A DNA stretch of 64,000 bases, from the IMG/VR virus record IMGVR_UViG_2939521961_000004. One strand, written 5' to 3'. The position numbers were made by a program. Origin of the DNA: a virus. Taxonomy: Duplodnaviria > Heunggongvirae > Uroviricota > Caudoviricetes. Shown here in pieces: positions 36,001 to 42,000 of this stretch (its first letter is position 1; each line of letters starts with the position of its first letter).

Positions 36001-39000
36001 CCCACACCGGACAGCGACATGATGATGTAAGCATGCGTCAGGGACCATCGGTGTGTGCCGGTGGTCTTTTTTATTGTTGTGAGCTTCCGGATTGCGGGAG
36101 GCGGGGTATGAACCAGATGGAAAAAATCACAACAGGTGTGTCATACACCACGTCAGCGGTGGGAACGGGCTACTGGTTCCTGCAGTTGCTGGACAGGGTT
36201 TCCCCGTCTCAGTGGGCGGCAATAGGCGTGCTGGGGAGTCTGCTGTTTGGTCTGCTGACGTACCTGACGAACCTGTATTTCAAAATCAGAGAGGACAGGC
36301 GTAAGGCGGCACGGGGAGAGTAAGCTGATGAGCAGGAAACTCCGCTATGGTTTATCGGCTGCCGTTCTGGCGCTGATTGCCGCAGGTGCTTCTGCGCCTG
36401 AAATCCTCGACCAGTTTCTGGATGAAAAGGAAGGCAACCACACCACGGCATACCGTGATGGTGCGGGTATCTGGACCATCTGCCGAGGCGCCATCATGGT
36501 GGATGGTAAGCCTGTGATTCCTGGCATGAAGCTGTCGAAGGAAAAATGCGACCGGGTTAACGCTATCGAACGGGATAAGGCGCTGGCATGGGTGGAGCGT
36601 AATATAAAAGTTCCACTGACCGAGCCACAAAAAGCAGGTATCGCGTCATTTTGCCCCTATAACATTGGCCCCGGTAAGTGTTTCCCGTCGACGTTTTATA
36701 AGCGGCTTAATGCAGGCGATCGCAGGGGAGCGTGTGAGGCGATTCGCTGGTGGATTAAGGACGGTGGCAGAGACTGCCGTATCCGTTCAAACAACTGTTA
36801 CGGTCAGGTATCAAGACGTGACCAGGAGAGTGCGCTGGCATGCTGGGGTATCGACAGGTAAGCAGAATATTTTGCTGAAAAATGACGTTGGCCAACGCGG
36901 GTAGACAACACGAAATCCTGCGAACTGGCAAAATGTAAGTGAATAAAGTCAACAAGATTGTTTCATGAAGAGGCACCGTAATGGTGCCTTTGTCATTTCT
37001 GCGCTTCGCACAAGCGTAAATAAACCAAAGAACCTTTCAGGATGAGCCCTGGTGGATAACCGGCAGTGGTCTGGTTAACCCTCTTTGGGCTGGTTATTCC
37101 TGTGCGCAGGGTTCATCACTAAAAGGAAATAACCGATGAATATGATGACCGTGCCGTTTCACGGCGATTCTCTTTATGTGGTTAACCATAACGGCGAACC
37201 ATACGTTCCCATGAAACCTGTCGTTGCGGGGATGGGGCTGGCCTGGCAATCACAGTTGGCTAAGTTAAGACAGCGTTTTGCGTCAACTATAACGGAAATC
37301 GTTATGGTTGCTGAGGATGGGAAACGACGCAATATGGTGTCCCTGCCGCTTCGAAAACTTGCAGGCTGGTTACAAACCATCAATCCCAACAAAGTAAAAC
37401 CCGAAATCCGCGGCAAGGTAATCCAGTATCAGGAAGAGTGTGACGATGTTCTCTATGAATACTGGACGAAGGGTTTTGTCGTTAATCCCCGTCGAATGAG
37501 TGTGATGGAAGAACTCAATCAGGCTTGCGCTGACATGAAACGGGATAAAAACATTGCCAGTGTGTTTGCTACCGGGCTGAATGAGTGGAAACAGGTTAAA
37601 GCCGCGCATGTATCAAAAATCCGCACATTGATAAACGAAGCGAATCTGCTGATTGATTTTGTCCTGGCTGATACAGACAAAGGGAAAATAACAAAGGCGG
37701 ATTGATGGAGTGGTGGCTAATGATATCGGATAAACTCATAACGCTGGCGAAGATCCTCTGTGTAATCGTCGGCATTTCATTTTTAGTCATTCTGGTTGCC
37801 ATTTTCTTTTCCACCGCTTGGCGAGTCCTGACGTTATCGGGACTGGTGGGGTGAAAGAGAGATGAACCGTGTTCTGTGTGTGGTGATTATTGTCCTGCTG
37901 GTAGCCTGTGGTGCACTTAGTCTGGGGCTGAATCATTACCGCGATAACGCCATAACCTACAAAGAGCAGCGCGATAAAAAAGTCAGTGAGCTGGAGCTGG
38001 CAAATGCAACCATTACTGATATGCAGCAGCGCCAGCGTGATGTTGCTGCACTTGATGCCAGATACTCGAGGGAATTAGCCGATGCGAGAGCTGAAAATGA
38101 AACTCTGCGTGCTGATGTTGCCGCTGGTCGTAAGCGCCTGCGCATCAACGCCAACTGTCCAGGCTCCTTGCGTAAAGCCCCCATCACCTCCGGCGTGGAT
38201 AATGCAACCGGTCCCCGACTGGCAGAAGCCGCTGAACGGGATTATTTCATCCTCAGAGAACGGCTGATGGCAATGCAGAAGCAACTGGAAGGAGCACAGG
38301 AATATATCCGTACCCAGTGTATACCGTGATGTTTTGTTACGAAGGTGTTACTGGTAACGTTAAGGTAATTTAACAAAGAGTCAGTTCCGGACTTTATAGT
38401 GTGCTCAGTTCATGGCCAAAAACGATTTCTGTGATAAATATTTTGAATATTATTTACAGGTAAATGGAGTGGGGCGCATGGATAGAAATATTACAATAGA
38501 GTATGAAGTATATGCCCGTATTGTATGGGCAGAGAAGGCAAAAACATGGTAATTCCGTGTGTTGCCATGATACCTGATTGGCAGAATTGTTGTTTGGTTT
38601 TGAGTATATAGTCAGCGTCTTTTGTTCGGTAATTGCTCTTTCAATTAAAATGCCAGATATGATTTGCTTTTCTTTGTTGTTTAGTTTTTTTGTATATTAT
38701 TTTTATTGTTTTTATATAATTAGTTTTTTATTGTTGTCTTATTAAGGACGGTAAATTCAGGATGGCAGTCTGTAGATAAACGGAGGTTACTTATGCTACA
38801 TGATCACCTGGCAGAATGTCTGGAGAAAAAAGGACTGTACCGGAGAGCAGCTGAACGATGGGCAAAAGTGATGGTACAGCTAAGTGATGACCAGAAAAGA
38901 AAAGTGGCGGCACAGAAACGAGCAGAGTGTTTGCGTAAGGCGCGCCGGACTCCGGTTTCACCGGTGAACCTGACCGAAATAAAACAAGCGGTCAACAGAC

Positions 39001-42000
39001 TACATTCTGAGTTGGGAATGGGATTTGAAGAGCGGCGGGTATTCCGACGATATAAAGGGACAGGAGAACAGAATACGTCCGGAAACGCGCGGTCAAAAAA
39101 ATGCTAAAAAATATCTGAGAGAGTTATTGCCTGTTACCATAAGAAAAAGCGACTTTAGTGGTCGCTTTTTGTGTCATATATAAGTCGTTTAAGTAAACCT
39201 GTCTGAACAGGTGCTCTGGTCGTGTTTGTCTTTGTTGGGTACAAATTGAGAATATTTTTCATTAATTAATCTTCTTCTGCAGGCTTCAATAACCCACGCT
39301 GAAAAATTACCTGAACCTTTCAGGTCAAGAGCGATGTTAATTTGTTCAATCATCTGGTTTGGAAATCGGATGTTGCGGGTTGTTGTTCTGCGGGGCCGGT
39401 TTTTCGATGACATTTTCTTTCCTCTGGTGACAAGCTATATGGCGAGGATTTTACATGGCTGTGCTTCGTACGTTACCGGGCAGAATCAAAACTCTGAACA
39501 CCCGGCGGGTGAATGTCCTGAAGGGTGAACAGCGTCGGGTCAGTGGTAGTGCCCGGGTTTCCCTCAAGCGTCATATCTGGCTGAGGGATGCCGGACAGTG
39601 CTGTCTCTGTGGGCGTGTGGTTGACCTTTGTGACAGTGAACTTGAGCACCGCATTGCACTTCAGTTCGGTGGTGGTAATGAGGAGACGAATCTCTGGACG
39701 CTCTGTACCGAATGCCATCGACAAAAGTCTGCTCGTGAAGCGGCGAGTGGTATGCCAGACCCGACGCTGCCGGAGGTGTCCGGAGGTAGTGGCAGAGCGG
39801 ACGACATCACCGGACTGTAACCCGACCCGGGGGGGGTATCATCCGGCGTAAAAAAAGATCGCTTTGGACACCGCCCCCCCTCTCACGCAGAGAAAAAATT
39901 CCCGTTTCAGGGCAGTTAACATGTTAACTGGCTGTCCGGGCATTTTTGCGGTTTTTATCTTTATTATTCAGTTTGTTGTGCGGAAAAAATGTTAACTGGC
40001 TTTTTCAGCAAATGTTAACCAGGCAGCAGTTAACATTTGCGGCATGAGACGCCGGGAAAAATGGGCTGAACCATACCCGGCTGAGTGCGTTCTGGACCCG
40101 GGAGGAGGCTGTGCTGACAACGCAAAAACGAAAATTTGCGCTGGCGCTCATGTCCGGGAAAAACAAAACAGCGTCAGCCATTGCCGCCGGTTATTCGGCG
40201 AAGACCGCCAGGGTTAAAGGCTCGCAGCTGGCAAAAGATCCGGAGGTGCTTGCGTTTATAGCCCGTAAACAATGCGAGACGGTGGAGGTGGATGAGGTTC
40301 CTGTTTACCGGCAGAAAAAATCAGAGCAGGAGGATAAACCCCGTCGCCGTGAGGCGGCTGCAATACCACAGCCGGACGAAAACAATCCGGAGATGCCACC
40401 GTCCGCGGTGATGTCTCCTGGTATTGAATATATGGAGGATGGTCTTCCCGATCCGGTGAAAGCGATGGGGCGTCTTCTGGTGGAGAACATTAATACCGAC
40501 CCCAGGCTGGCGCTGGATGCGGCTTATAAGCTGGCGCAGTTCACGCACCATAAAAAAGGGGATGCCGGTAAAAAATCGGCAAAAGGTGACGCGGCGAAAA
40601 AAGCGGCTAACCGTTTTGCGGTGCCACCACCACCCCGCCTGGTGGTGAATAATGATAATGAGGGCAACGGATGATACCTGTGTGGAGCACGGCCTGCCCG
40701 GACTGGGCAGAGCGCCTGAAAAAGGGGCTGTCGATTATTCCGGCTCCGATTTATCCGGACCAGGCTGCACATGCACTGGCGATTTTTAAACAACTGCGAA
40801 TTGTGGATGCACCTGGTAGCCCGACATTCGGGGAGTCCTGTGCACCGTGGGTGTTTGACCTGGTGGCGGCCCTGTTTGGCTCCTACGATGCGCAGACCGG
40901 TGTTCGCCATATCAAGGAAGTGTTTATCCTTATCCCCAAGAAAAACTCGAAGTCCACGCTGGCTGCGGGGATCATGATGACGGCGCTGTTACTGAACTGG
41001 CGGCAGGCGGCGGGCTACACCATTCTGGCCCCGACCGTGGAGGTGGCGGCTAACGCCTTCAACCCTGCCAGGGATATGGTACGACGGGACGATGATCTGG
41101 ATGACCTCTGTCAGGTGCAGACCCATATCCGGACCATCACCCATCGGGTGACGGACACCACCCTGAAGGTGGTGGCAGCCGATCCGAATACGGTGTCCGG
41201 TATCAAGTCCGTGGGGACACTGATTGATGAACTGTGGCTGTTTGGCAAGCAGTACAAGGCGGAAGACATGCTACGTGAAGCCATCGGCGGGCTTGCCTCC
41301 CGTCCGGAAGGGTTTGTGGTGTATACGACCACCCAGTCGAATGAACCGCCCGCCGGGGTGTTCAGACAGAAACTGCAGTATGCCCGGGATGTCCGTGACG
41401 GCAAAATTCATGATCCGCACTTTCTGCCGGTGATTTTTGAGCATCCTCCTGAAATGGTGGAAAGCGGGGCTCACCTGCTGATGGAAAACCTCGCCATGGT
41501 TAACCCGAATCTCGGTTATTCGGTGGATGAGGCCTTTCTGTACCGGGAGTACCGTAAAGCCCGGGAGGCTGGTGAGGAAGCATTTCGTGGCTTCATGTCA
41601 AAACACGCCAATGTGGAAATCGGTCTTGCCCTGCGTTCTGACCGCTGGGCGGGCGCGGATTTCTGGGAGCAGCAGGGCAGGCGCGTCAGCCTGGACGATA
41701 TCCTGCAGCGCGCTGATGTGGTGACGGTGGGGATTGACGGCGGGGGCCTGGATGATCTGCTGGGAATGTACGTGACTGGCCGTGACAGGGAAACCCGCGA
41801 ATGGCTGGGCTGGGGCCATGCCTGGGTGCATGAAACCGCGGTGGTCAGACGGAAGAGTGAGGCATCCCGGTTTCAGGATTTTGTGGCCTGTGGAGACATG
41901 ACGATTGTCCGTCGGGTCGGGGATGACACGGCGGAAGTGGCGGAGTATGTGCGTCGTATTCATGAGGCTGAGTTACTGGATCATATCGGTATTGACCCGT

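Follow-up and report, generated by a model that had tools for sequence, protein, structure and literature searches.

A pchB-type gene behind a prophage lysis cassette

The DNA analysed here, hereafter the window, is a stretch of 64,000 nucleotides from a virus of the class Caudoviricetes (IMG/VR record IMGVR_UViG_2939521961_000004), and its subject is a small gene of the pch (PerC homologue) family that follows a lambdoid lysis cassette. A first-pass annotation had described at this place a basic protein of 104 residues, assigned it tentatively to the Pch regulators that activate the LEE (locus of enterocyte effacement), and read the AT-rich DNA before it as a curved promoter region of the kind silenced by H-NS. 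The open reading frame (ORF) was indeed found 463 bp beyond the end of Rz, and its product is strongly basic, with a pI of 10.3 and 25 lysine and arginine against 12 aspartate and glutamate residues.

The family assignment was borne out by alignment. The five pch genes of the O157:H7 strain Sakai and perC from plasmid pMAR2 of the enteropathogenic Escherichia coli (EPEC) strain E2348/69 were fetched and aligned with the window gene. The window protein is identical to Sakai PchB (ECs_2182) at 104 of 104 residues, and it matches both PchA and PchC at 103 of 104 (L6V and V58M, respectively). Towards EPEC PerC, 47% identity and 70% positives were observed over 87 residues (E 1e-27), while identity amounts to 40% with PchE and 28% with PchD. 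Sixteen alignment columns do not vary among PerC and PchA-E, and a C-terminal tail of 15 residues (90-104) is common to PchA, PchB and PchC and missing from PerC, PchD and PchE. The Pfam profile PerC (PF06069) was matched with 148.8 bits (cutoff 22.6; E 5.4e-44), positions 1-89 of its 90 being covered by residues 1-89. The RefSeq entry for the product is WP_001302717.1, "PerC family transcriptional regulator", which is annotated in a prophage of strain War that is 99.88% identical to the window across 41 kb.

Because the sequence is identical to PchB, nothing plausible stands against the identification, and the ORF belongs, as an allele of the pchB type, to the group 1 pch genes (pchA, pchB and pchC) of enterohaemorrhagic E. 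coli (EHEC) and related attaching-effacing E. coli. The gene has been described since 2004 together with its family, prophage location and function, and it is annotated in RefSeq. Recognition of the gene aids the pathotype annotation of the source genome, since group 1 Pch proteins act as master switches in EHEC colonisation.

A survey of complete E. coli genomes (5,426) found the gene together with its AT-rich tract in 673 of them, O157:H7, O26:H11, O103:H2 and O45:H2 strains included; the copy number has a median of three and reaches at most five. Genome-wide, the locus splits into two identity classes, one of at least 99% and one of 90-95%. Close relatives found in the homologue search numbered only 16, including several frameshifted fragments, which precluded a deep alignment of the product.

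Table 1. Coordinates of the pch locus and of associated prophage features in the window
Feature	Positions	Strand	Remarks
dicF small RNA gene	18372-18423	-	Same prophage as pch; Rfam RF00039 at 75 bits (gathering score 48)
Holin (Phage_holin_2_1)	36108-36323		Lambdoid lysis cassette
Lysozyme	36328-36861		Lysis cassette
Rz	37862-38329		Lysis cassette; Rz1 embedded at 38082-38267
Conserved part of the Rz-pch spacer	38330-38581		Contains a 46-codon ORF
AT-rich tract	38582-38781		27.5% GC, tied lowest 200-bp window; presumed promoter or regulatory region
T-rich core of the tract	38631-38745		18% GC; 59% T on the + strand
Perfect TATAAT, candidate -10	38715-38720	+	pchB allele only; putative, from a permissive scan
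Shine-Dalgarno (SD) sequence GGAGG	38782-38786	+	6 nt 5' of the ATG; kept in all four alleles
pch gene (pchB allele)	38793-39107	+	ATG start; 104 residues; PerC family, group 1 Pch
Candidate anti-SD and DicF pairing site	38886-38896	+	In the coding sequence; weak in-silico basis
Bidirectional intrinsic-terminator-like stem-loop	39144-39170		Between pch (+) and the ylcI/ynfO-like gene (-)
ylcI/ynfO-like gene (DUF3950)	39189-39413	-	Small; convergent with pch, same terminator
HNH endonuclease gene	39455-39820	+	Upstream of terS/terL
terS	40111-40674		Terminase gene downstream of pch

Composition and allele divergence of the upstream tract

The strongly AT-rich DNA of about 200 bp that had been noted before the ORF contains the lowest-GC stretch of the whole window. 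Positions 38645-38744 are 17% GC and form the lowest 100-bp window in the 64 kb (mean 53%, standard deviation 7-8%), and positions 38599-38748, with 23% GC, form the lowest of 150 bp. This low GC content upstream of pch is not a chance fluctuation. The tract is moreover asymmetric between the strands, T making up 59-60% of its coding strand, and the coding sequence that follows it is about 50% GC.

Four alleles were compared, namely the window and the pchA, pchB and pchC loci of Sakai. Against Sakai pchB, the window DNA shows a single difference among 463 upstream positions, T-rich core included, none in the coding sequence and again a single one among the 93 positions of the 3' region. Between the pchB type and the pchA/C type, the T-rich core is only 70-73% identical and carries small indels, and it is the only strongly diverged segment of the aligned region. 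Outside the core, identity between the allele types is 95-99.7% in the upstream spacer (the first 300 bp or so, 38330-38630), 91.5-93.6% in the leader, 99.4-99.7% in the coding sequence and 98.9% in the 3' region. The composition of the core was nevertheless kept in every allele, at 18-21% GC and 54-59% T. This preservation of GC and T content despite the divergence of the sequence suggests that composition, and not the sequence itself, has been under selection. The core is also, from these comparisons, a candidate basis for a published difference in control between pchA and pchB, since the title of Honda et al. 2009, as cited in PMC4456613, speaks of differential regulation of PchA and PchB by LrhA.

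Spacer, promoter candidates and terminator

Promoter candidates in the tract came from a permissive scan of the four alleles. The bases aligned to the perfect TATAAT of the pchB type read GCGTGG in pchA and CTGTGA in pchC, neither of which resembles a -10 element. On the 3' side, a stem-loop that the standard terminator scan of 38250-39500 had missed was folded separately; its free energy is -14.7 kcal/mol on the + strand and -11.9 kcal/mol on the - strand, with z about -3.5 on both, and it is invariant in the four alleles. By its predicted fold it would end the transcripts of pch and of the convergent ylcI/ynfO-like gene alike. Of the features by which an accessory unit ('moron') is recognised, a terminator and a position between conserved phage modules are present at pch, and no promoter was identified in the scans.

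The conserved part of the spacer holds an unannotated ORF of 46 codons (38412-38552, + strand) that is intact in all four alleles. It had no Pfam or NCBIfam match, about nine in ten of its substitutions among the alleles are nonsynonymous, and on these two grounds it is probably not coding. Another possible occupant of the spacer, the small RNA (sRNA) HnrS, was rejected: its three copies in Sakai are located on Sp9, Sp10 and Sp12 and not on the pch prophages.

Function and control of group 1 Pch

Full expression of ler and espA, like adherence, depends on the group 1 pch genes and not on pchD or pchE (PMC6265319, PMC4456613), and the activation of LEE1/ler and of adherence by PchA, PchB and PchC goes back to Iyoda and Watanabe 2004, as cited in the same two papers. 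Fukui et al. (PMC4764244) found that the LEE1 promoter is activated by Pch only when it is repressed by H-NS/StpA/Hha/YdgT, that Pch expression lowers the occupancy of LEE1 and of effector loci by H-NS, and that the regions bound by Pch have the lowest GC content of all regions examined. Given that its sequence is identical to that of PchB, the window's product very likely activates LEE1/ler as well.

Several regulators were reported to act on pch. According to reviews (PMC4456613, PMC7279287), LrhA directly activates pchA and pchB, and butyrate induces pchA via Lrp and LeuO. Signalling by ppGpp and RelA to the LEE requires pchA (PMC6094958). SOS induction raises the expression of group 1 pch (PMC6265319), which fits the orientation of pch inside the phage late operon.

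Control at the level of translation was described for the sRNA DicF, which frees the ribosome-binding site of pchA from an anti-SD in the coding sequence and thereby activates translation (reviewed in PMC7873438 and PMC7769764). A dicF gene lies on the same prophage as the window's pch and was also found on Sakai Sp4, which carries pchA, and on Sp11, which carries pchB; on Sp14, which carries pchC, none was detected at the gathering score. In folds of the pch transcript, 38886-38892 was the commonest minimum-free-energy partner of the SD, with partners that vary with the transcript ends. ACCAGAA at 38888-38894, which is perfectly complementary to UUCUGGU at the 5' end of DicF, shares positions with this segment. 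In full-length RNAduplex predictions, 3% of shuffled sequences paired as well as DicF and pch, which is marginal. The overlap of this 7-nt seed with the predicted SD partner is consistent with the published model rather than support for it.

A proposed prophage-borne anti-silencer with several inputs

The explanation that accounts best for the locus, and that can be held with high confidence, is that of a pchB-type moron on a lambdoid prophage that encodes an anti-silencer like PchA and would be expressed through three inputs. In this explanation, the identity, family, genomic position, composition, terminator and co-residence with dicF come from the present analysis, and the function of Pch and its regulators from the literature. 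The unit lies just downstream of Rz/Rz1 and has both an AT-rich upstream region and a terminator of its own. Its small, basic and predictedly all-helical product would bind AT-rich DNA at LEE1 (ler) and loosen the complex of H-NS, StpA and Hha there, as described for the near-identical PchA. The first input would be a promoter placed in or near the AT-rich tract, acted on by LrhA, by Lrp with butyrate, by LeuO and by ppGpp, and probably damped by H-NS. As a second input, we infer that a Q-dependent phage late transcript reads through into pch upon prophage induction. The third would be a fold that sequesters the SD and is relieved by DicF at the candidate site in the coding sequence, the sRNA being supplied by the dicF copy of the same prophage.

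H-NS prefers AT-rich, horizontally acquired DNA, and from composition alone its binding at the pch tract is likely. Silencing of the pch promoter by H-NS is plausible, a reasonable inference rather than a finding. A butyrate sensor built as PpchA-pchA-PLEE1-gfp was responsive only after deletion of hns (PMC7279287); since the sensor needed this deletion, H-NS acts somewhere in the cassette, possibly at PLEE1 rather than at PpchA. No statement about the pch loci was found in the text of the Sakai H-NS chromatin immunoprecipitation-microarray paper. Of the curved and H-NS-silenced promoter proposed in the first-pass annotation, the extreme AT-richness stands, while curvature and silencing are not established.

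Several observations weigh against this explanation or parts of it. No periodicity of AA/TT at 10-11 bp was detected in the tract (p 0.10-0.85, and 0.19-0.85 for phasing near 10.5 bp), and the peaks of a wedge model at about 38456 and about 38700, although at the 99.3-99.7th percentile of the window, carry little weight. A high-affinity H-NS nucleation motif (TCGATAAATT-like) was absent from the region at zero or one mismatch; matches with two mismatches were observed at 38367-38376 and 38748-38757, and window-wide the same consensus gave 59 matches against 44 +/- 7 expected. In the literature searched, no report of H-NS occupancy or of hns-dependent expression was found for pch itself. A standard sigma-70 promoter scan of 38250-39500 returned nothing, and the candidates of the permissive scan were allele-specific, none being convincingly common to the four alleles. 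For the third input, the pairing probability of the SD is only about 0.15, so that sequestration is weakly predicted. As to the protein, unaided DNA binding by Pch and PerC is disputed, one study having seen no gel shift with PerC (PMC6094958). An AlphaFold2 model built on a shallow alignment of six sequences is all-helical (helices at 5-12, 16-28, 32-51, 60-73 and 78-82, followed by a disordered basic tail); its confidence is moderate, with a predicted local distance difference test of 70 and a predicted template-modelling score of 0.38. A Foldseek search of this model against the PDB gave no match (best E 1.7), and PDB sequences searched with a profile yielded just one marginal match, to MarR (E 0.046).

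Among the other explanations, the one that survives best is that the tract serves mainly as a landing pad for LrhA, Lrp, LeuO and IHF, with stimulation of the UP-element type, and not as a site of H-NS silencing. In its favour, LrhA is reported to activate pchA and pchB directly, and Lrp with butyrate as well as LeuO to induce pchA; the tract also differs between pchB and pchA/C, in line with the title on differential regulation by LrhA. The need for hns deletion in the butyrate sensor argues against it, with the same reservation about PLEE1. Such a landing pad, which is compatible with silencing, appears somewhat unlikely as the main role of the tract but has to be taken seriously.

It is rather improbable that pch has no meaningful promoter of its own and is a passenger of the Q-antiterminated late transcript, with Pch made mainly upon prophage induction. 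The gene is oriented like the lysis and terminase genes, no consensus promoter emerged from the scan, and SOS enhances group 1 pch. On the contrary, LEE expression in ordinary Dulbecco's modified Eagle's medium, where the prophage is not induced, needs pch (PMC4764244), pchA responds to LrhA and to butyrate through Lrp (PMC4456613), and the gene has its own terminator, as is typical of an autonomous moron.

The possibility that the low GC content is a compositional relic of a foreign pch cassette, devoid of any regulatory role, is more improbable still. The 27-30% divergence and the small indels tolerated between alleles would agree with it. Nevertheless, all alleles keep the GC and T content of the core despite this divergence, which suggests that composition or strand bias is maintained, and a coding sequence of about 50% GC indicates that AT-richness does not extend to the whole cassette. 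Finally, an inactive or decaying paralogue is hardly credible, since the ORF is intact and fully identical to PchB and its SD and terminator are intact, even if the portal gene is frameshifted in the near-identical War prophage and an insertion sequence (IS) element adjoins a truncated integrase ORF in the window.

The T-rich core may give each pch copy its own regulatory input, or submit it to silencing by H-NS and to counter-silencing by Pch, hence to positive autoregulation, or both. Counter-silencing by Pch at its own core is proposed because Pch prefers DNA of the lowest GC content, and the whole proposal is a speculative one with a low chance of being right. If it were true, the presence of dicF on the same prophage would mean that the phage carries a self-contained switch for host virulence, composed of an sRNA and a regulator.

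Relation to known systems

The closest relative, Sakai PchB of Sp11, is encoded like the window's protein directly after Rz/Rz1. The Sp11 prophage is however a different mosaic from the window, with an unlike terminase pair and patchy megablast identity. PchA (ECs_1091, Sp4) and PchC (ECs_2737, Sp14) share with the window's product their length, their tail and the site directly after Rz/Rz1, and they differ in the T-rich core, as described above, and in the absence of the TATAAT. Terminase genes follow pch in Sp11 and Sp14, and Sp4 was rearranged there by IS elements.

EPEC PerC belongs to the same Pfam family, and both proteins were reported as activators of LEE1/ler. PerC however has 89 residues and is plasmid-borne (pMAR2/pEAF) as the third gene of perABC, behind perA and perB, and is not a prophage moron; the dependence of the EPEC LEE on PerC is conditional (PMC4764244). 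PchD (ECs_1388, SpLE1) and PchE (ECs_1588, Sp7) are PerC family proteins found in the same type of genome, but they are shorter, at 89-90 residues, and occupy genomic settings other than that of the window's pch. Both were reported not to activate the LEE, and PchE represses csgD and curli (PMC6265319). With Ler and other anti-silencers of H-NS, Pch shares the reported principle of relieving H-NS, StpA and Hha at AT-rich virulence promoters (PMC4764244). Ler is an H-NS paralogue unrelated in sequence to Pch, while in Pch no DNA-binding fold is recognised (PMC4764244).

Prophage context and neighbouring genes

The gene is oriented like the lysis and terminase genes between which it lies. An antirepressor-like gene is listed between lysozyme and Rz in the lysis cassette. 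On the 3' side of pch, the convergent ylcI/ynfO-like gene and the HNH endonuclease gene precede the terminase genes; the window has both, whereas neither is annotated between pch and the terminase in Sakai Sp11 and Sp14. Upstream in the window, a cluster of three tRNA genes (32162-32410, + strand) is directly followed by a match to the STnc100 sRNA family (33183-33355, + strand, 104.7 bits), an arrangement that is also present in Sp4, Sp11 and Sp14.

At the other end of the prophage, an IS629-like element of the IS3 family was found at about 13306-14616, with a transposase ORF at 13684-14574 and an ALIL frameshift pseudoknot at 13642-13758 (+ strand, 121.5 bits). As the element adjoins a short integrase-family ORF (12659-13237, - strand), apparently truncated, a disruption of the integrase end of the pch prophage is suggested.

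Positions 1-10707 of the window are the tail module of a second lambdoid prophage, located directly upstream of the first, and the two appear to be in tandem. This module comprises an ORF for 848 residues (23-2569) that aligns to the tape-measure DNA of Sakai prophages, a J-like host-specificity protein (5119-8637), Lom (8670-9329) and a tail fibre with collagen repeats (9388-10707). The end of this neighbouring prophage carries a gene for a TccP/EspFU-like effector of a type III secretion system (11103-11855, - strand), a protein of 250 residues with four EspF repeats (Pfam E 5.5e-109). The presence of this effector gene points to a host of the attaching-effacing pathotype, the LEE itself lying outside the window. 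The espJ-tccP region of Sakai was reported to be bound by H-NS and responsive to Pch and Ler (PMC4764244). The DNA upstream of the window's effector gene (11828-12027) is 27.5% GC and shares with the pch tract the rank of the lowest 200-bp stretch of the window.

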